Below are positions 30,434-63,791 of a DNA stretch of 64,000 bases, one piece after another; position 1 is the stretch's first letter; the number at the start of each line of letters is the position of its first letter. Below the pieces are notes generated by a model. That model saw nothing but the letters and a program-made list of their open reading frames with translations. It made no database searches and was not told the origin of the DNA. The translations under genes were made by a program, and so were the position numbers. This stretch comes from Vicinamibacterales bacterium (GTDB lineage: Bacteria > Acidobacteriota > Vicinamibacteria > Vicinamibacterales > UBA8438). Location of the stretch: contig DASCQF010000126.1 of assembly GCA_036012905.1 (NCBI GenBank), forward strand, positions 13,165 through 77,164. Direction: 5' to 3'.

Positions 30434-31405
30434 TCAGAGGGCCACCGGCGTCACCGCCGGCCGCCCACTCACGACCTCCACCACGTTGCGCACGGCGAGC
30501 TCGGCCATCGCCGTACGGGTTTCACGGGTGGCGCTCCCCAGGTGCGGCGTCAGACAGACGTTCTCCCGGCCAACCAGCTGAGGGTGCACACCCGGCTCCC
30601 CCTCGTACACATCGAGACCGGCGCCGGCAATCAGACGCGCATCAAGGGCCCAGGCAAGGGCGCCGTCGTCCACCACTCCCCCACGCGACGTGTTGATCAA
30701 GAACGCCGATCGCTTCATGCGCGCCAACGTCCGCCGGTTGATCAGGTGTCGGGTGTCCTGGGTCAACGGCACGTGCAACGACACGACGTCAGATGTCAGC
30801 AGAAGTTCGTCGAGCGATACCACCGCATGGTCGGTCGCGGCATTCTCGGCGCCAGCACCGGTCCGCGCAGCGAAGACCGCACGCATCCCGAACGCCGGCG
30901 CAACGGCGGCCACGGCGCGACCGATCCGTCCGGCGCCGACGACCCCGAGCTGCTTGCCCCGTAGCTCGGCGCCCAGGAGGAAATCGAAGGCCCAACCCTT
31001 CCAGGCGCCGTTCCGGACCACCCGCTCGCCCTCACCGATGCGGCGCGTCACCGCCAGAATCAACGCCCACGTGAATTCCGCCGTTGCGCCCGTCAGGATG
31101 TCGGGCGTGTTCGTCACCACGATCCCCCGCGACGCGGCGGCCGCGACATCGATGTTGTCGAATCCGACCGCGACGGTCGCGACCACCTTCAGCTGGTCTC
31201 CGGCGGCGATCGCCGACTCTTCGATCCGATCGTTGAACATGCAGATGAGGCCCTGCTTCCCACCCACACGCGCGCATAGCGCGTCGTGCGACAGCGCGTC
31301 AGAGTGGTCGTGCAGGTCGATGTCGCAGACGACTTCGAGCTGGGCGAGCACGGCAGACGGCATCCGCCGTGTGACGAGCACGGACGGCTTAGTGGCCCCG
31401 GTCAT
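30434..31405 (-). CDS. D-isomer-specific 2-hydroxyacid dehydrogenase (glyoxylate/hydroxypyruvate reductase-like)
   Basis: NAD-binding GVVGAGRIGRAVA, catalytic-region NTSRGGVVD, and HLGSAT. The start is ambiguous. ATG 31405 lies inside the inverted-repeat element, and an in-frame GTG at 31381 is the alternative. Confidence 0.85.
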   Translation of the reverse strand: MTGATKPSVLVTRRMPSAVLAQLEVVCDIDLHDHSDALSHDALCARVGGKQGLICMFNDRIEESAIAAGDQLKVVATVAVGFDNIDVAAAASRGIVVTNTPDILTGATAEFTWALILAVTRRIGEGERVVRNGAWKGWAFDFLLGAELRGKQLGVVGAGRIGRAVAAVAPAFGMRAVFAARTGAGAENAATDHAVVSLDELLLTSDVVSLHVPLTQDTRHLINRRTLARMKRSAFLINTSRGGVVDDGALAWALDARLIAGAGLDVYEGEPGVHPQLVGRENVCLTPHLGSATRETRTAMAELAVRNVVEVVSGRPAVTPVAL

Positions 31406-31583
31406 AAATACGGTCGCATTCGGCCGCCGATGCATCCCACCAGGCGCGGCGCTGGGCTTCGGCTCAGCGGGGTCGACTGCTGCCGGTCTGCTCCCTCCTC
31501 GCGCCTACCGCGAGCTGTGTGCGGCATCCGTCGAGTCGGCCCTCGATGCGTGACCGTATTTTTGACCGGGACCACTCGGACGG
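31388..31583. mobile_element. ~195-bp element with 25-bp terminal inverted repeats, copy A (MITE-like or structured RNA)
   Basis: Left arm AGTGGCCCCGGTCATAAATACGGTC (31391-31415) matches the reverse complement of the right arm (31552-31576) at 23/25 positions. About 80-85% identical by eye to 62305-62500. It is flanked by the direct repeat CGGACGG (31381-31387 and 31577-31583). Confidence 0.7.
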
Positions 31584-31595
31584 AGCCGTGGGGGG

Positions 31596-31868
31596 TCAGT
31601 CGACCAACCCGTTGGGGTCGACGATGCCGACGAGCGCGGCATCCACCGGGGCCGCGCGACGACCGAGGGCGGCGCCGGCGGCCCGCCCCTCGAGGACGAG
31701 CAGCACCAGTTCGCCGACGCCGGCGCCAACGGCGTCGACCGCCAGCTGGGTCGCACCCATCGGTCGGCCGTCACGGTCCACCGGCTGCGTCAACAGCAGC
31801 TTCGCCCCCTCGAGAGTACGGTCCTTCTTTGTCGCCACGACGGAGCCGATGACCCTGGCGATCCGCAT
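31596..31868 (-). CDS. BMC vertex protein, EutN/CcmL family (BMC-P), paralog 3 in the operon
   Basis: MRIARVIGSVVATKKDRTLEGAKLLLTQPV...AVDAVGAGVGELVLLV...PVDAALVGIVD is collinear with EutN/CcmL. Confidence 0.9.
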   Translation of the reverse strand: MRIARVIGSVVATKKDRTLEGAKLLLTQPVDRDGRPMGATQLAVDAVGAGVGELVLLVLEGRAAGAALGRRAAPVDAALVGIVDPNGLVD

Positions 31869-31875
31869 CTCCCGG

Positions 31876-32196
31876 CTACCCCCCGGTGGAACGACGACGT
31901 GAGGCGCGGCGTGACGGCGTGGTCGCGACAGCCTCGGTGCTCCAGTGGTCGCAGATGCCGGTGACGCTCGCGTCGGTCGGAACCACTCGAGGGTGAAACG
32001 GGAAGGCTGCCTCTCGGCCGCGAACGAAGAACACGTCTTCGCCAGCGCCGGCTCCGACTGAATCGACCGCCACCAGCGGCGCTCCCACCTTCTCGCGCGC
32101 CGCGGACAGCGGCTGCAGCACGAGTAGCGTGCATCCGGCCAGACCGGGGTCCTTCGCGGTCGAAACGACGTTGCCGATCACCCGTGCGAGCTGCAT
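31876..32196 (-). CDS. BMC vertex protein, EutN/CcmL family (BMC-P), paralog 2, with a basic C-terminal tail
   Basis: MQLARVIGNVVSTAKDPGLAGCTLLVLQPL...AVDSVGAGAGEDVFFV. It carries an extra 23-aa tail HWSTEAVATTPSRRASRRRSTGG. Confidence 0.85.
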   Translation of the reverse strand: MQLARVIGNVVSTAKDPGLAGCTLLVLQPLSAAREKVGAPLVAVDSVGAGAGEDVFFVRGREAAFPFHPRVVPTDASVTGICDHWSTEAVATTPSRRASRRRSTGG

Positions 32197-32225
32197 CGAT
32201 GCGTGCTACCTGGAGGACTCAGCGG

Positions 32226-32501
32226 TCAGGCCGCGTCATCGGTATCGACCGCGTCGACGATACCGACAATCGCCGCGTCGATCGGACGGTCGGTGAGCCC
32301 AGCGGCCATTCGCGCCGAGCTGCCGCTGACCACCAGCACCGTTTCGGCGGCACCTGCGTCAACCGTGTCGACCGCCACCAGCGAGGCCCCATGCGCTTCA
32401 CCATCGGGTGACACCGGCTGCACGAGCAACAGCTTGCTCCCGACCAGCCGGTCGTCCTTGCGGGTCGCGACGACGGTGCCTACCACCTTTGCGAGGATCA
32501 T
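32226..32501 (-). CDS. BMC vertex protein, EutN/CcmL family (BMC-P), paralog 1
   Basis: MILAKVVGTVVATRKDDRLVGSKLLLVQPV...AVDTVDAGAAETVLVVSGSSAR...PIDAAIVGIVD. An upstream Met at 32525 is an alternative start. Confidence 0.9.
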   Translation of the reverse strand: MILAKVVGTVVATRKDDRLVGSKLLLVQPVSPDGEAHGASLVAVDTVDAGAAETVLVVSGSSARMAAGLTDRPIDAAIVGIVDAVDTDDAA

Positions 32502-32572
32502 GACGTCTAGATAGGAACGTGTCACACGAAGACGGCGCCCTCGCGTGGTGCGACGGCGGCCTGTCGGGCACG

Positions 32573-32860
32573 CTACTTACCCGTGCTCTTGCCGATCGGC
32601 AGGGCGTCTTCGACGTTGGCGTGGGGTCGCGGGATTACGTGCACCGCCACGAGTTCGCCGACACGACGCGCGGCAGCGGCGCCGGCGTCGGTGGCCGCCT
32701 TCACGGCCGCCACGTCTCCCCGCACGATCGTGGTCACGAGGCCCGCGCCGATCTTTTCCCAGCCGACCAGAGTCACCTTGGCGGCCTTGACCATGGCGTC
32801 CGATGCTTCGATCATCGCGACGAGTCCCTTGGTCTCCACCATTCCCAGCGCCTCGCCCAT
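32573..32860 (-). CDS. BMC shell hexamer protein (BMC-H, PduA/EutM/CcmK family)
   Basis: [80 protein letters not shown] is near-collinear with PduA. A GGAGG sits 6 nt upstream of the ATG. Confidence 0.95.
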
Positions 32861-32873
32861 TCCATGCCTCCAA

Positions 32874-33794
32874 CTACTGCAACTGCTTCACGGCATCTGC
32901 GATCAGTGCCGTCAGCTCGCGGTATGTTAATCGAATTTCCTCATCCGAACCTAGCAACCCGGAACCAAGGTCCAATGGCTGACGACCGGAACCGCCATGG
33001 GATTCATCACTGGCGTCCCGCGTTCCGGCCCGACTGGAATCGACCGCCTGCGTGTCGACCACCTGCTCGCCAGGCTGCGCCGGCGCCTCGAGCGTTTGGC
33101 AACTGAGGTCGGGGCCGTTTTCCGGGTCCGTCGGGCAGATCGGCGCCGGTGCCGCGATGCCGTAGCGATCCCGAAGGTCCTGCAGCCGGTTCACCTCTTC
33201 TCGCGATAGAAGCCGCTCTCGGCCCAACTGTCTGGCCACGAGGCTGATCCGTGCGAAGTGCTCCACCGTTTCCATCTTGTAGTAGGCCGCAAACAGCTCA
33301 TCCGCAACCGTCAGGGCGCCATGATTGGCGAGCAACAACCCGTCGTGCGCGCGGATGTACTGCCGCACGGCATCGGCCAGCTCGCTGGTGGAGGGGGTGC
33401 CGTAATCGGCGATCGGAATGCTGCCCAGCGTGGTGACCACCTCCGCCAGCACCGCGCGATCGAGCGGAATCCCAGCGACGGCAAACCCGGTCGCGGTCGG
33501 CGGGTGCGCGTGCACGACGGCCTTGATCTCCGGCCGGTTCTCGTAGACCGCCAGGTGCATGAGGATCTCGGACGACGGCTCGCGCTCACCGGTGAGCTTG
33601 CCCCCGGCGAGGTCGGTCGTGACCATCATGTCCGGCGTCATGAAGCCCTTCGACACGCCGGTCGGCGTCGTCAGTAGCCGGTCGCCTTCGAGGCGGACAC
33701 TGATGTTCCCGTCGTTCGACGCGACAAAGCCGCGCTCGTGCAGCCGACGCCCGACTTCGACGATGTCGGCCCTGAGCCGCTCTTCAGTCTGCAT
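32874..33794 (-). CDS. class II aldolase (fuculose/rhamnulose-phosphate aldolase family) with a ~90-aa C-terminal extension ending in an amphipathic helix
   Basis: Catalytic motifs are [19 protein letters not shown] and LLANHGALT (Zn His triad plus Glu, as in FucA). Residues ~217-306 are extra. They form a Pro/Gly/Ser/Asp linker, then [22 protein letters not shown]. Confidence 0.9.
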
Positions 33795-33807
33795 CTACTG
33801 ACCCGAA

Positions 33808-34077
33808 TCAGACGCTCGGTGCTCGCTTCCCCTGCTGAAACGCCGCGCGACAGTCTTCCGAGCAGAAATGGTGCACCTCGCCCCGACGACGCGTGGTCAG
33901 GGCACGCGACTGGTCGATGTAGGTGCCGCACACCGGGTCACGGACCAACCTGACCCTCTCTGCGGGAGGCACCTGCGGCCGGCTGGCTGCTCCTTGAACG
34001 AGACCGCCGAGAAACTTCCAGACGAGCCGCACCAGCAGCATCACGACCAGGAACCGGATGAGCCAGCCAAATACCAT
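33808..34077 (-). CDS. membrane-anchored YHS/TRASH-domain protein
   Basis: N-terminal TM MVFGWLIRFLVVMLLVRLVWKFLGGLV, then DPVCGTYIDQSRALTTRRRGEVHHFCSEDCRAAF (YHS/TRASH cysteine pattern). Its stop is 13 nt from the aldolase start. Confidence 0.7.
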   Translation of the reverse strand: MVFGWLIRFLVVMLLVRLVWKFLGGLVQGAASRPQVPPAERVRLVRDPVCGTYIDQSRALTTRRRGEVHHFCSEDCRAAFQQGKRAPSV

Positions 34078-34109
34078 GAGATAGCGGCAGGCAATGCGCG
34101 ATCGTGCCG

Positions 34110-34697
34110 CTAGTGCGCGGCGCGAAGGCGTTCCATGGCGTCGGCAGCGGCCAATGCCTCAGGGGTGCCAGGAGCAACGCGTAGAACCTCTTCCCAGGCC
34201 TCGAACGCGCCATCGAGGTCCTGATTACCAAAGGCGCGCACGATGCCGAGGCTCAAGATCGTCTTGGCATGCGCCGGGTCGACCTCGAGGGACCGGGCGA
34301 GCTGGGCCAACGCGCGTTCGGTGTCGTCGAGGTAGAAGTAGGCCACGGCGAGATCGGTGCTGACGTCGACCGCCTTCGGGTCGAGCGTGAGTGCCTCCTC
34401 GAACCACGGGATCGCATCCTCGAACTGTTGCGAGTTGAAATAGAGGTTGCCGAGATCGACGCGCACCTGGACGTCGTCCGGCGCACCCTCGGCGGTCTCA
34501 CGCAACTGGGCCGCCCGCGTCTCATCGAGCGGCGGCGGCTCGGGCGCCGGCGGGACCGGGGCGGGGGGGAGCGGGGACGACGACGACGCGATCGCCTCAA
34601 CCGGCTCCGCCGGCCGCTGGCTCCACACAATCCAGCCCATCAGACCGGCGGCGAGCACTAGCGAGGCGAGGAGTGGGATGGTCTCAGTACGATTCAT
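34110..34697 (-). CDS. membrane-anchored tetratricopeptide repeat protein
   Basis: N-terminal TM, a Pro-rich linker, then TPR-like repeats (LGNLYFNSQQFEDAIPWFEEALTLDP, LAVAYFYLDDTERALAQLARSLEVDP). Confidence 0.7.
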   Translation of the reverse strand: MNRTETIPLLASLVLAAGLMGWIVWSQRPAEPVEAIASSSSPLPPAPVPPAPEPPPLDETRAAQLRETAEGAPDDVQVRVDLGNLYFNSQQFEDAIPWFEEALTLDPKAVDVSTDLAVAYFYLDDTERALAQLARSLEVDPAHAKTILSLGIVRAFGNQDLDGAFEAWEEVLRVAPGTPEALAAADAMERLRAAH

Positions 34698-34772
34698 CAG
34701 ACGTGTCGAGTCCCTTCGTGCCGATCATAGCAACGCTGCCGGAACAGCGTCCAGCGGGGCACACCGGCGGCA

Positions 34773-35480
34773 TCAACCAAGTAGGGCGATCATCTCCCGA
34801 ACCGCGCGTTCGAGACCAACCAGCACCGCGCGGGAGACGATGCTGTGACCGATGTTCAGCTCGACGATCTCCGGAATGGCGGCGACCGGCTTGACGTTGG
34901 TGTAGGTCAACCCGTGACCGCCCAGCACCTCGAGCCCCTCCTCGTGGGCCTTGCGAGCCGCCTGCTGAACCCGCGCGAGCTCCACCGTTCGGCCTTCGGG
35001 GTTGGCGTCGGCGTAAGGACCCGTGTTTATTTCGACCGCGGTAGCGCCCGTCGTACGTGCCAAGGCGATCTGGTCGGGCGCCGCGTCGATGAACAGGCTG
35101 GCAGCGATGTCCGCCGTCTGGAGCCGACTCACGACATCGGCGATCACCGTCTGGTGCCGCCCGATATCGAGCCCACCGGTCGTGGTCACCTCGTTGGGAT
35201 GCTCCGGAACCAATGTGACCTGGTCCGGTGTCAGCTCGGTGGCAATCGCGACCATCGCGTCGGTCGCCGCCATCTCCACGTTGAGTCGGGTCGACACCAT
35301 CTCACAGAGGAGCCGCAGGTCGCGGTCCTGGATGTGCCGCCGATCACCGCGTAGATGTATGGTGATGCCGTCGGCGCCGGCCAACTCTGCCAGTGCCGCC
35401 GCCGTCACCGGCTCCGGTTCGCGCGCGCGGCGCGCTTGTCGGATAGTCGCCACGTGGTCGATGTTGACACCCAGCCGCAT
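34773..35480 (-). CDS. pdxJ: pyridoxine 5'-phosphate synthase
   Basis: [27 protein letters not shown], and EINTG / HGL motifs. An upstream Met at 35504 is an alternative start. Confidence 0.9.
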
Positions 35481-60062: not shown

Positions 60063-61373
60063 ATGACGCGTTCCGCCTTCGACTCGCACCACCCACCGGA
60101 CCCGGCGCTGGTCGCCGACTGCGTGCACTGCGGGTTCTGTTTGCCAACCTGCCCGACCTATATGTTGTGGGGAAAGGAGACCGACTCGCCGCGGGGCCGA
60201 ATAGTGCTCATCAAGGGCGGGCTCGCAGGCGAGACGGGCATCACCGACCCTCTGGTCCGTCACTTCGACACCTGTCTGGGCTGCATGGCCTGCGTGACGG
60301 CCTGCCCGTCAGGCGTGCAATACGACAAATTGATCGCGGCCACGCGGCCACAGATCGAGCGACAGGCGCACCGGCCGCTGGGCGACCGGCTGTTCCGGTG
60401 GCTGATTTTCGCGCTCTTCCCCTATCCGACTCGTCTGCGTCTGGTCGCCGGGAACCTCTGGGCCTATCAGCGGCTCGGTCTGCAGCAACTGGCACGCGCG
60501 ACTGGGTTACTGCAGCTACTACCGGCTCCACTGCGCGCCATGGAGGCCGTGCTGCCGCCGGTGTCACTCGGCGGGGCCTGGTCGACCGCGCCCGTCCGCG
60601 TGCCAGCCATCGGTGAACGGCGCCGCAAGGTCGGGATGCTGCTCGGCTGCGTGCAGCGGGTCTTCTTCGACAAAGTAAATGCCGCGACGATCCGGGTGCT
60701 GGCTGCCGAGGGCTGCGAGGTTGTCATTCCCCGCACCCAGGGCTGTTGCGGAGCATTGATGATGCACGCCGGTCTCGAGGCGGACGCTGCAGACATGGCG
60801 CGTCGCTTCATCGACGCGTTCGAAACGGAGGCGGCCGACGTCGAGACCATCGTCATCAACGCCGCCGGGTGCGGTTCGACGCTGAAGGAGTACGGCCACC
60901 TGCTGCGGGACGACCCGGCGTATGCCGGTCGAGCGCAGGCGCTGGCCGACAAGTGCAAGGACATCTCGGAGCTGCTCGCCGAGCTCGAACCGCGAGCACC
61001 GCGGCACCCGGTGCCGCTCCGCATCGCCTACCACGACGCCTGCCACCTGCAGCACGCCCAAGGTGTGACCGCGGAGCCCAGACGGGTGCTTGGCACAATC
61101 CCAGAGTTGGAGCTGCGCGAGATTCCTGAGGCGGGCATCTGTTGCGGCTCAGCCGGAATCTACAACCTGGTCGAGCCGGACACCGCCGACGACCTCGGAG
61201 ACCGGAAGGCTCGGCACATCCTGACGACCGGCGCCGAGGCCGTCGTCTCGAACAACCCCGGGTGCCTGTTGCAGATCGCGAGTCGACTGGAGCAGGCGGG
61301 CAAGCCAACGCGCACCTACCACATGGTGGAGCTGGTGGATGCGTCGATCCAGGGAGTGGCATTGACGCGATGA
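60063..61373 (+). CDS. glcF: glycolate oxidase iron-sulfur subunit
   Basis: CVHCGFCLPTCPTY...SPRGRI and CLGCMACVTACPSGV ferredoxin motifs, followed by two CCG domains (GCCG..., CCGSAG). Collinear with E. coli GlcF. Confidence 0.9.
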   Translation: MTRSAFDSHHPPDPALVADCVHCGFCLPTCPTYMLWGKETDSPRGRIVLIKGGLAGETGITDPLVRHFDTCLGCMACVTACPSGVQYDKLIAATRPQIERQAHRPLGDRLFRWLIFALFPYPTRLRLVAGNLWAYQRLGLQQLARATGLLQLLPAPLRAMEAVLPPVSLGGAWSTAPVRVPAIGERRRKVGMLLGCVQRVFFDKVNAATIRVLAAEGCEVVIPRTQGCCGALMMHAGLEADAADMARRFIDAFETEAADVETIVINAAGCGSTLKEYGHLLRDDPAYAGRAQALADKCKDISELLAELEPRAPRHPVPLRIAYHDACHLQHAQGVTAEPRRVLGTIPELELREIPEAGICCGSAGIYNLVEPDTADDLGDRKARHILTTGAEAVVSNNPGCLLQIASRLEQAGKPTRTYHMVELVDASIQGVALTR

Positions 61374-61565
61374 AGGTTTGGCTGGGGTCTGTGAGCGCCG
61401 CTCATTTGGGGCCTCTACTTGCGACACTGGGACCAGCAGACTTACAGCCCCTGTCGAACAGCGTGGGTTCAGGGTCCGTGTCCCGCCACCCCGCGTCGGA
61501 GCTCGCCGTGAGCCGATTTGTCCCTCTGGGGCGTGTCGGCACGAACTAGCCCCTCAGTTCGGAGA

Positions 61566-62270
61566 ATGAAGGCACGAACAGCGTCGACAAGGCTTCTCGA
61601 CAGGCTCAAGAAACTGTGGATCCGTGTGCTAACTGGAGACTGTTTGAGGAAAACCAGGTTGCATACCTATTCGGGCAATTTGATCGATCTTCGCGGCATG
61701 CGGTACCTGCCGTCGTCGATGTGGTCAGTTTTTCTTTTGAAAGCTTTTGGATATCGTCTTCGCGTTCCCTGGCTTGGGTACCGCGCAGTGACGCATCTCG
61801 GCCATCTCGTGCGCCCGAATTGGAAGGTGCTCGAGTTCGGCTCTGGCATGTCTTCACTGTTCTTTGCGCGAGCGTGTTCTAACCTCGTTTCGGTGGAGTC
61901 TGACCAGAGCTGGCACGATCGCATGCAAGAAATGTTTTCAGAGGAGGGGATGAACAACATCGACTACAGGCTTTGCGATCCTGACTCCTACAATTCACAT
62001 CCTGACCTCCCGATCAACCACTTCGACTTGATCGTGATTGACGGAATGGCAAGAGACGTGTCGGCGCAAGTTGCGATTCAATTAGTGCGTCCGGGGGGGT
62101 ATATTTTTTACGACAATAGCGATGTTCCGTGGGAAGAGTACAGGAAGGCTCGCAACCTCTTGACCGCAGCAGCCGAGTCAAACGGAGTGACAATCTTCAA
62201 TGACTTCACTCCATTTCAAATCCAGGTAAACGAAAGCATGCTGGTCAAAATCAGTAAGCGGCAGCACTGA
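61566..62270 (+). CDS. putative class I SAM-dependent methyltransferase-like protein on a low-GC islet
   Basis: VLEFGSGMSSLFFA (motif I-like) and DLIVIDG. Local G+C is visibly far below the flanks, with runs such as TTTTTCTTTTGAAAGCTTTTGGATATCG. The start is set at MKARTAS. Confidence 0.55.
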   Translation: MKARTASTRLLDRLKKLWIRVLTGDCLRKTRLHTYSGNLIDLRGMRYLPSSMWSVFLLKAFGYRLRVPWLGYRAVTHLGHLVRPNWKVLEFGSGMSSLFFARACSNLVSVESDQSWHDRMQEMFSEEGMNNIDYRLCDPDSYNSHPDLPINHFDLIVIDGMARDVSAQVAIQLVRPGGYIFYDNSDVPWEEYRKARNLLTAAAESNGVTIFNDFTPFQIQVNESMLVKISKRQH

Positions 62271-62304: not shown

Positions 62305-62500
62305 CTTAGTGGCCCCGGTCATGAATACGGTCGCATTCGGCCGCCGATGCATCCCACCCAGGCCGGCGTTGGGCTCTTGCTCAGCGGGGTCGAATACTGC
62401 CGGTATGCTCCCTCCTCGCGCCTACAGCGAGCCGAGCGCGGTATCCGCCGACTGGGCCCTCGTTGCGTGACCGTACTTATGACCGGGACCACTGAGAACG
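62305..62500. mobile_element. ~195-bp element with 25-bp terminal inverted repeats, copy B
   Basis: Left arm AGTGGCCCCGGTCATGAATACGGTC (62308-62332) matches the reverse complement of the right arm (62469-62493) at 22/25 positions. About 80-85% identical by eye to 31388-31583. It begins 8-15 nt downstream of the glcE stop. Confidence 0.7.
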
Positions 62501-62507
62501 GTCGTTC

Positions 62508-63791
62508 TCAATATCCGCCTGGTCCACGACCACAATTCAGCGTACCGGTCGGGTCAAAGCGACGCTTGACCTCCTGCATGGTCCGCAGACCGTCGCCAAC
62601 CGGACCCCACACGTCGACCAGCGCCTTCAGCTCGGGGTCGGTCCGCTGGATCACGGCACTACCCCGGCCGACCGGGAGCCGGTTGCGCAGCGCGGTGACC
62701 AACGCCGCCTGTTCAGGCACCGGGCCACTGAACCCAAGATACAGCACACCGAGACCGGCGCGGCCGGTCACCCGGTAGTCGAGCCGGCGCGTGCTCGTAG
62801 CGTCGTCTAGCCAGGCGAGGGTCGACGTCAGCTCGGCCGGCAGAACCACCAGCTTCACAATCGTGCCTTCCTGGTCGAACAGACGGGCATCGTGCGCGCG
62901 CCAGGCGGCGGTCTCTTCGTCACCCGTCAGGATCGTCGGTGTGCCACCTAGGCCCTTGGCCAGCGTGGCCGCCTGCTCCGCCTGCTCGAGCACAACCGCC
63001 TCGACCGACTCGAACCGGACGAGCATCGTCGTCGGCGGCAGCGCTAACTCCAGCGCGGTTGGCGTGGCGGCGTGGGCCAGGAGATCGTCGACGAACGGGC
63101 CGCACAGCGCGGCGTCTGAAAACTCGACCGCCACGGACCGCGAGGCCTCAGCCAGCGGCGCCAGCTTGAAGGTGGCGGTCAGGATGACGCCGAGACACCC
63201 GAACGAGCCGGTCATCAGCCGCGCCAGGTCATAGCCGGCTACGTTCTTCACGACGATACCGCCGGTCTTTGCCAACAGACCGTCGGCCCGCGCCAGGGTC
63301 ATGCCGATTATCAGGTCACGCGGCGCGCCGTGACGTTGGCGACGCGGCCCGCTGTCGTTGGTGGCGACAATCCCGCCAATGGTGGCTCGGTCGCCCCATG
63401 GCGGATCCAGCGGCAACCATTGACGGTGCCGGCTCAACACGGCATTCGTCTCGGCGAGCGTCGCGCCAGCCTGCACCGTGGCGGTCAGATCGCCGTGTCG
63501 ATGCACGTCCACGGCGTTCATTGCCGCGGTCGACACCACGAGGTCCACGGACTCGGGTGGTGGCCCCCAGCTCAACTTCGTACCGCCGCCCTGCACCAGT
63601 ACGGTCCGCCCGGTTTCGGTCGCCCAGGCGAGCATCGTCGACACCTCAGGAGCGTTCTGCGGTGTCGCGACGATGCCCGGTACGACACCGTCTATTGCGT
63701 CAGCCATCGACCCCGGTCGGGCAACCGCCGCACCGACTCGCGCGTCCACCTCGGCCACGAGGTCGTCGGGTGTGGATGACTGGCTCGGCAT
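62508..63791 (-). CDS. glcE: glycolate oxidase FAD-binding subunit (GlcE-like FAD-binding oxidoreductase)
   Basis: The FAD_binding_4-type N-terminal half has VLVQGGGTKLSWG. Its position directly after a GlcD C-terminus fits glcE. Confidence 0.8.
   Translation of the reverse strand: MPSQSSTPDDLVAEVDARVGAAVARPGSMADAIDGVVPGIVATPQNAPEVSTMLAWATETGRTVLVQGGGTKLSWGPPPESVDLVVSTAAMNAVDVHRHGDLTATVQAGATLAETNAVLSRHRQWLPLDPPWGDRATIGGIVATNDSGPRRQRHGAPRDLIIGMTLARADGLLAKTGGIVVKNVAGYDLARLMTGSFGCLGVILTATFKLAPLAEASRSVAVEFSDAALCGPFVDDLLAHAATPTALELALPPTTMLVRFESVEAVVLEQAEQAATLAKGLGGTPTILTGDEETAAWRAHDARLFDQEGTIVKLVVLPAELTSTLAWLDDATSTRRLDYRVTGRAGLGVLYLGFSGPVPEQAALVTALRNRLPVGRGSAVIQRTDPELKALVDVWGPVGDGLRTMQEVKRRFDPTGTLNCGRGPGGY

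Follow-up and report, generated by a model that had tools for sequence, protein, structure and literature searches.

A class II aldolase encoded in a 64,000-nucleotide stretch of a Vicinamibacterales genome (NCBI GenBank assembly GCA_036012905.1, contig DASCQF010000126.1, positions 13,165 to 77,164 of the forward strand), here termed the window, carries 92 C-terminal residues that very probably serve as the encapsulation extension of a bacterial microcompartment (BMC) of the ACI type. The gene is an open reading frame (ORF) on the minus strand (32874..33794) that encodes a protein of 306 residues, and judged by the gene content of the window, the main locus of an ACI-type BMC lies here, in a genome of an order within the Acidobacteriota. 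BMC cargo is typically targeted by an amphipathic helix of about 18 residues that sits on a poorly conserved linker, and an earlier note on this DNA had proposed that the aldolase ends in such an encapsulation peptide (EP).

The Catalytic Core and the Limits of the Extension

Residues 1-214 form the FucA-like core of the enzyme (33153..33794, minus strand). The Aldolase_II family (Pfam PF00596) matches residues 10-184 with E=2e-49, and the core carries the motifs NDGNISVR (27-34), PSSE (73-76), VVHAHPP (93-99) and ANHG (156-159); every motif quoted in the earlier note is there, and the linker stretch reads as it was quoted. Free-standing FucA enzymes (PDB 1FUA and 4C24) share its fold and the conserved metal and catalytic motifs PSSE, HAH and NHG. 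However, solved FucA chains are 200-222 residues long and have no extension; they align with residues 6-212 of the window aldolase, up to a few residues from their own C-termini. Since none of them goes past residue ~212, residues 215-306 constitute a genuine C-terminal extension of 92 residues. The earlier note had placed the end of the core near residue 215, which agrees with the end of the fold at ~214, and its interval for an extension of about 90 residues (32877-33146, residues 217-306) is likewise confirmed within two residues.

What the core acts on is less clearly indicated by its family matches, as the protein falls below every NCBIfam equivalog cutoff, including that for FucA. The top match, to 3-oxo-tetronate-4-phosphate decarboxylase, scores 140 bits where the cutoff is 250; the best FucA model reaches 122 bits, with a cutoff of 264, so that the substrate need not be fuculose phosphate.

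Anatomy and Conservation of the Extension

By scanning one genome per GTDB species we collected 80 orthologous loci with 62-92% protein identity, which together with the window copy gave an alignment of 81 sequences. Mean column conservation is 0.85 in the core (residues 1-222), 0.34 in residues 223-284 and 0.85-0.88 in the tail, and the same pattern is found among the 120 closest database proteins. Most columns of the 223-284 stretch are gapped in most orthologs, and insertions and deletions in the linker make the total length of the protein vary between 273 and 334 residues. Within the window protein the extension can be divided into three parts: a proximal conserved part (residues 215-246), a hypervariable linker (247-284) and a C-terminal helix (285-306).

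The proximal part (33057..33152, minus strand) reads APAPIC220P...C232Q-x-L-x-A-P-S-x-P-G-x-x-L-V in the alignments. C220, C232, Q233, A237 and P238 are invariant among 44 homologs, and column conservation at these residues is at least 0.9 among the 81 orthologs. This Cys motif is an element separate from the linker and the terminal helix, and its conservation hints at a site for metal or redox chemistry, or at a second motif for binding. Clusters of the CxxC type also occur directly after the core in distant BMC-associated aldolases and are mostly missing from relatives that have no extension.

The linker (32943..33056, minus strand) is variable in both sequence and length, rich in Gly, Asp, Ser, Pro and Gln, and modelled with low confidence by AlphaFold2, which with an alignment of 44 sequences gave a predicted local distance difference test (pLDDT) score below 50 for residues 237-282. 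The earlier note had described everything between core and helix as a low-complexity linker, which suits residues 247-284 but not the conserved Cys motif at 215-246.

The last 22 residues (32877..32942, minus strand) form the amphipathic helix that is the candidate EP. Its conserved core spans residues 287-305, starts with Ile or Val and ends in (A/E)DAVKQL. As a check on the tail the earlier note had proposed secondary-structure prediction; the same AlphaFold2 model places a helix at residues 291-305 with pLDDT ~80, behind a linker of low confidence. For the last 20-22 residues the hydrophobic moment comes to 0.48-0.50 and peaks at 90-100 degrees per residue, which is the pattern expected of an alpha-helix. 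This moment lies about two standard deviations over the mean of 20,000 shuffles and is reached by 1.9-2.5% of them, or by 6-8% when windows of 18 residues are used. The helix-like hydrophobic spacing that the earlier note had read from these 22 residues, whose sequence it gave exactly, is thus real, and the amphipathicity is of a moderate degree. The strongest sign that the tail exceeds chance is, on the aligned sequences, its conservation. No second protein with a similar tail was found when the last 25 residues of the aldolase were searched against the whole window by tblastn.

Conservation of the helix acts mainly on the peptide. The codons of residues 292-305 vary freely while the residues are fixed: L294 is written with 5 codons, L297 with 6 and A301 with 4, and third-position entropy at positions 292-305 is 0.8-1.7 bits among the 81 orthologs. 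Synonymous variation under fixed residues means that selection acts on the peptide, and it rules out that the tail is conserved at the DNA level only.

Linkage of the Extension to Shell Genes

The tailed aldolase is strictly linked to shell genes. Directly downstream of it lies, in all 80 orthologous loci, a gene for the shell hexamer protein BMC-H; in the window this protein has 95 residues (32573..32860, minus strand; PF00936, E=4e-29, with an EutM-like NCBIfam match above cutoff), carries the KAAK/KAAN and PRPH interface motifs, and its gene begins 13 nucleotides after the aldolase stop codon. A triplet of BMC-P pentamer genes follows in almost every locus whose sequence extends far enough. 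Directly upstream, a small Cys protein is present in 80 of 80 loci, and further upstream a gene for a TPR protein in 79 of 80. An aldolase identical to that of the window has been deposited from an Acidobacteria metagenome-assembled genome, and the relative with 92% identity comes from Vicinamibacterales. By their labels, all but a few of the 80 loci belong to Vicinamibacterales, Vicinamibacteria or Acidobacteria, and the few metagenomic labels that read Woeseiaceae, Acidimicrobiia or Bifidobacteriaceae are probably binning errors.

Comparison with more distant aldolases extends this linkage beyond the orthologs. When 1.8 billion cluster representatives were searched without a profile, the relatives at 42-58% identity formed two groups, namely proteins of 207-232 residues without an extension and others with 40-110 extra residues. 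In the latter, the core is directly followed by a Cys motif, then by a stretch of variable sequence and by an amphipathic helix at the terminus, and several of the helices show clear homology to the window tail (ITLTRGELTRLIEDAVRTLRG, ITLTRQQLVELIAESVELL, LVLTREELIRLVADAVEQL and ITLTRDRLVELIADAIRSIRS); behind the genes of the relatives ending in ITLTRGELTRLIEDAVRTLRG and LVLTREELIRLVADAVEQL, a BMC-H gene and three BMC-P genes follow. Aldolases from genomes that lack BMC genes had been named in the earlier note as the comparison that would decide against its reading if they shared the extension. The nearest relatives without an extension, P0124 (57% identity), P0163 and P0153, have no shell genes nearby, nor does P0134 on its short contig. 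In contrast, P0128 and P0135, which have the extension, adjoin a BMC-H gene and three BMC-P genes, and P0133, also with the extension, adjoins two BMC-H genes and a phosphotransacylase gene. Two further relatives with an extension, P0129 and P0125, lie on contigs of 1.0 and 1.7 kb, which are too short to inform this comparison of gene context. On the gene neighborhoods compared, the extension tracks shell genes, apart from two distant relatives (P0136 and P0147) that are taken up below, and the outcome for the relatives without shell genes nearby agrees with the earlier note.

These results bear on a reading in which the tail serves the aldolase itself, as an intramolecular or oligomerization element such as a lid or an autoinhibitory helix on the active site, and has nothing to do with encapsulation. 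The tail matches the core in conservation, as one would expect of such an element, and in Escherichia coli FucA a short C-terminal tail takes part in catalysis. However, a hypervariable tether of 40-110 residues would be a poor design for a precise lid, solved FucA enzymes work without any extension, and the extension is linked to adjacent shell genes and missing from free-standing relatives, all of which makes a lid improbable.

The small Cys protein upstream of the aldolase brings in another reading. In the window it has 89 residues (33808..34077, minus strand). It begins with a helix of very high hydrophobicity, which a linker rich in Pro connects to a YHS-like domain (Pfam YHS, E=1e-7; weak match to the NCBIfam PP0621 family), and its C50, C72 and C76 are conserved in orthologs. 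The terminal amphipathic helix of the aldolase might be a membrane-targeting sequence as in MinD and FtsA, bringing the enzyme to the inner membrane, perhaps acting with this neighbor, whose hydrophobic N-terminus and weak PP0621 match would suit that role. Yet the aldolase helix has a net charge of about -1 and no cationic face of the kind typical of membrane-targeting helices, and the strict linkage is with shell genes, so that we regard membrane targeting as very improbable. The N-terminus of the small protein itself (VFGWLIRFLVVMLLVRLVWKFLGGLV) is almost wholly hydrophobic and looks more like a transmembrane segment than an amphipathic EP, although it is listed as an EP in the 2021 catalogue of BMC types discussed below.

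Comparison with the ACI Microcompartment and Other Encapsulation Peptides

The ACI type was defined from 125 loci, all from Acidobacteria and mainly from subdivisions 4 and 6 (Sutter et al., 2021, Nat Commun 12:3809). Its locus was described as having “a pfam00596 aldolase with a C-terminal EP,” while its aldehyde dehydrogenase is encoded on a satellite locus and carries an EP near its own C-terminus; a further EP was assigned to the upstream Cys protein of ~80 residues, and the aldolase was placed nearest to HO and MIC3 aldolases and not to PVM ones (Sutter et al., 2021, Supplementary Data 2). The window agrees with this description in having a pfam00596 aldolase and a pfam00389/02826 hydroxyacid dehydrogenase in the main locus, a BMC-H with the standard interface motifs beside a BMC-P triplet, and, as the counterpart of the short (~80 residues) protein that has three conserved Cys and starts with a helix, the 89-residue protein described above. 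It also keeps to the restriction to Acidobacteria, and the main locus has no aldehyde dehydrogenase, as in ACI. Nothing essential differs: the window copy has a transposon-like insertion that separates the third BMC-P gene from the dehydrogenase gene, and for the “protein with 3 conserved histidines” of the catalogue no counterpart was identified in the window.

The EP of the ACI aldolase was thus already published in 2021 as a bioinformatic assignment, and the finding reported here is correct but ordinary. It shows that a reader given the sequence only is able to recognize a microcompartment cargo signal, and adds little new biology, as the assignment had been catalogued; what goes beyond the published description are the conserved Cys motif and a frozen nucleotide block that is treated below.

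C-terminal EPs on BMC class II aldolases had been described before (Aussignargues et al., 2015, Commun Integr Biol 8:e1039755), with a helix of ~17 residues (EP of 12-17 residues) and a linker of 23-81 residues that is not conserved and unusually rich in Cys (5.5%). The window aldolase shares with them the enzyme family and the terminus that bears the EP; its linker of ~60 residues, which has two invariant Cys, and its helix fall inside the published length ranges. The features by which EPs have been recognized (Kinney, 2012; Aussignargues et al., 2015) are found here as an extension that is absent from non-BMC homologs, a terminal amphipathic helix, a poorly conserved linker, although conservation holds over ~30 residues at the start of the extension, and co-location with shell genes. 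The layout of an amphipathic helix and a flexible linker on cargo encoded beside shell genes is also that of the N-terminal EPs of PduP, PduD and EutC and the C-terminal EP of CcmN, and the proposed mechanism, binding to shell tiles combined with cargo aggregation, is alike. However, those EPs belong to other enzymes and have other sequences, and experiments have shown them to be both necessary and sufficient for targeting, whereas the evidence for the ACI tail is bioinformatic.

By analogy with the EPs of PduP, PduD, EutC and CcmN, we infer how the extension would work and on what it would dock. The flexible, fast-evolving tether (residues ~247-284) would hold out the conserved amphipathic helix of ~19 residues (287-305), whose hydrophobic face (I287, L289, L294, L297, I298, A301, V302 and L305) would dock, as the compartment assembles, on the luminal surface of BMC-H or on the interfaces between tiles. 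The partner would be the BMC-H encoded 13 nucleotides downstream, and the helix may also bind the EPs of other cargo and so nucleate an enzyme core. In this way the aldolase tetramer would be packaged inside the shell.

A variant of this explanation, and not a true alternative to it, is that the helix mainly glues cargo together, joining the aldolase for example to the small Cys protein or to the satellite aldehyde dehydrogenase with its EP, and that the shell then coats a pre-formed aggregate without being bound directly. In published models EPs have a dual role with core aggregation as the first step of assembly, the catalogue lists EPs on at least two other ACI proteins, and a near-invariant tail fits a specific protein partner. 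However, BMC-H is also very conserved (88-97% identity among the orthologous loci), so that a shell partner is equally compatible, and we consider mainly cargo-binding helices possible, if on balance rather unlikely. The EPs on the Cys protein and on the satellite aldehyde dehydrogenase also qualify the proposal of the earlier note that the aldolase is the encapsulated cargo: the tail, its helix, the linkage to shell genes in 80 of 80 loci and the catalogue all speak for the aldolase as cargo, but not for it as the sole cargo.

Several observations weigh against the encapsulation reading. The amphipathicity of the tail has p values of ~0.02-0.08 depending on the window, and several helices of the core score higher. 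Two relatives with an extension, P0136 and P0147, have no shell gene on contigs of 4-16 kb, and may represent satellite or fragmented loci, or real counter-examples. The ACI tail is nearly invariant in its clade, whereas EPs in general share properties and not sequence; being far more conserved than usual EPs, it could have an additional or a different partner. A full-text literature search found no encapsulation experiment on the ACI BMC or on the aldolase tail, a weak negative as most subscription journals lay outside the search. Finally, part of the nucleotide conservation of the tail, at codons 286-291, lies outside the peptide explanation. That said, encapsulation remains very much the favored reading, and if validated, a compact conserved EP together with a minimal shell set (one BMC-H and three BMC-P) would be a possible convenient module for engineering.

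A Frozen Nucleotide Block at the Start of the Helix

Comparison of third codon positions among the 81 orthologs revealed an invariant block, GAA-nTT-CGn-yTA-ACA-TAC, at codons 286-291 (32922..32939, minus strand). Codons 287, 289 and 290 have an unvarying third base in 81 of 81 orthologs and codon 291 in 79 of 81, and of the four codons out of 306 with a third-position entropy below 0.1, three are inside the block. Leu289 is written CTA or TTA and Thr290 ACA without exception, and where residue 287 is Val its codon is always GTT. The block holds the only fixed A/T-ending codons of a gene whose GC content at third positions is ~0.8, in a genome with 66% GC. This implies, on the codon comparison, a constraint at the level of the nucleic acid.

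One could then ask whether the tail as a whole is conserved not for a functional peptide but for a nucleic-acid element that overlaps its coding sequence, for instance a promoter inside the gene or an RNA site that serves the shell genes. The invariant synonymous positions and the rare A/T-ending codons at 286-291 are what such an element would leave. However, the block covers 6 of the 22 codons, codons 292-305 are synonymously variable under fixed residues, and distant relatives, among them a BMC aldolase in which the block is missing, keep the peptide motif without it. The synonymous-site data largely refute this reading for the whole tail, and we give it hardly any weight.

A more restricted version, in which the start of the EP-coding sequence hides a second, nucleic-acid signal next to a functional peptide, is unlikely, though less so; such a signal might be a -10-only internal promoter, an RNA processing site or a translational pause before the helix emerges. 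The TAACAT within the block fits TANNNT, the pattern of -10-only promoters, and no conserved -35 element is possible because the sequence upstream of the block is the variable linker. An RNA processing site would uncouple the dosage of the shell genes from that of the enzyme. If such a second signal exists in any of these forms, the EP-coding sequence would double as a stoichiometry control of microcompartment assembly.

We also tried a number of concrete candidates for the block. A consensus scan for a sigma-70 promoter or an intrinsic terminator at the junction of the aldolase and BMC-H genes found nothing at the block, and an Rfam search over 31300-34800 gave no match at E<=1. As to a hairpin partner in the RNA, no conserved 9-mer complementary to the block (TAACATAC) occurs within 400 nucleotides on either side. 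A 3-bp stem around TTCG was rejected because covariation fails, ATT being often paired with CTA, and an overlapping ORF in the +1 frame that ends at the embedded TAA was set aside, with a length of 7 codons in many loci. The distance from the block to the start of the BMC-H gene is variable, from 13 to more than 100 nucleotides.

The spacer between the aldolase and BMC-H genes, 13 nucleotides in the window, has 50 to more than 100 nucleotides in many orthologs (loci L008, L011, L013, L015-L018, L020, L024 and L025). Some of the long spacers contain GC-rich inverted repeats, which could be attenuators that set the ratio of enzyme to shell.

Other Genes of the Locus and the Window

The three BMC-P genes (EutN/CcmL family) of the window lie at 32226-32525, 31876-32196 and 31596-31868 on the minus strand (PF03319, E=1e-26 to 1e-30), and the encoded paralogs have 47-55% mutual identity. 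The second of them (31876-32196) ends in a basic tail of ~20 residues rich in Arg, Pro and Ser (EAVATTPSRRASRRRSTGG), the basic character of which is kept in orthologs while the sequence is not. Upstream of the small Cys protein, the TPR-repeat protein is encoded at 34110..34697 on the minus strand and is matched by Pfam TPR families.

The D-2-hydroxyacid dehydrogenase (30434..31435, minus strand; PF02826 and PF00389) resembles glyoxylate reductase, with an NCBIfam match below cutoff, and its true start is probably Met12, at the ATG at 31402. As the earlier note had stated, it has no extension comparable to that of the aldolase; in the window and in orthologs, homology runs from 5-15 residues after the N-terminus to the C-terminus. 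The gene is missing from 8 of the 72 loci that are long enough (L029, L033, L034, L038, L040, L065, L071 and L078), and in three others (L043, L049 and L051) several kb of extra genes lie between it and the BMC-P triplet. Being missing or displaced in some loci, the dehydrogenase is not a fixed part of the locus.

Around the BMC cluster are the housekeeping genes pdxJ, glmM, folP, ftsH, tilS, nth and queE. Pfam scans of ten large ORFs of the window found no aldehyde dehydrogenase, and the same scans together with tblastn searches using the shell proteins found no shell genes in the window outside the locus. A satellite locus for the aldehyde dehydrogenase would thus lie beyond these 64 kb.

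An element of ~186 bp with terminal inverted repeats of 25 nucleotides (92% complementary) occurs twice in the window, at 31391-31576 and 62305-62493, with 89% identity between the copies, and looks like a miniature inverted-repeat transposable element (MITE). The first copy is the insertion behind the BMC-P triplet mentioned above, where it overlaps the first codons of the dehydrogenase ORF. Locus L001, which is 92% related, has the element at the identical place, and L003, L004, L010 and L031 contain fragments of it elsewhere. The second copy adjoins an ORF on the plus strand (61518-62270) of atypical composition, which fails a filter on third-position GC content that recovers other genes of the window and contains LEFGSGMSS, a motif like that of S-adenosylmethionine-dependent methyltransferases; this ORF may have been horizontally acquired. 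In the same region, about 30 kb from the BMC locus, there are a GlcF-like gene (CCG and 4Fe-4S domains) and a GlcD/E-like gene (FAD_binding_4), at 60063-61373 on the plus strand and 62508-63791 on the minus strand, which may be relevant as the dehydrogenase of the BMC locus is glyoxylate-reductase-like.

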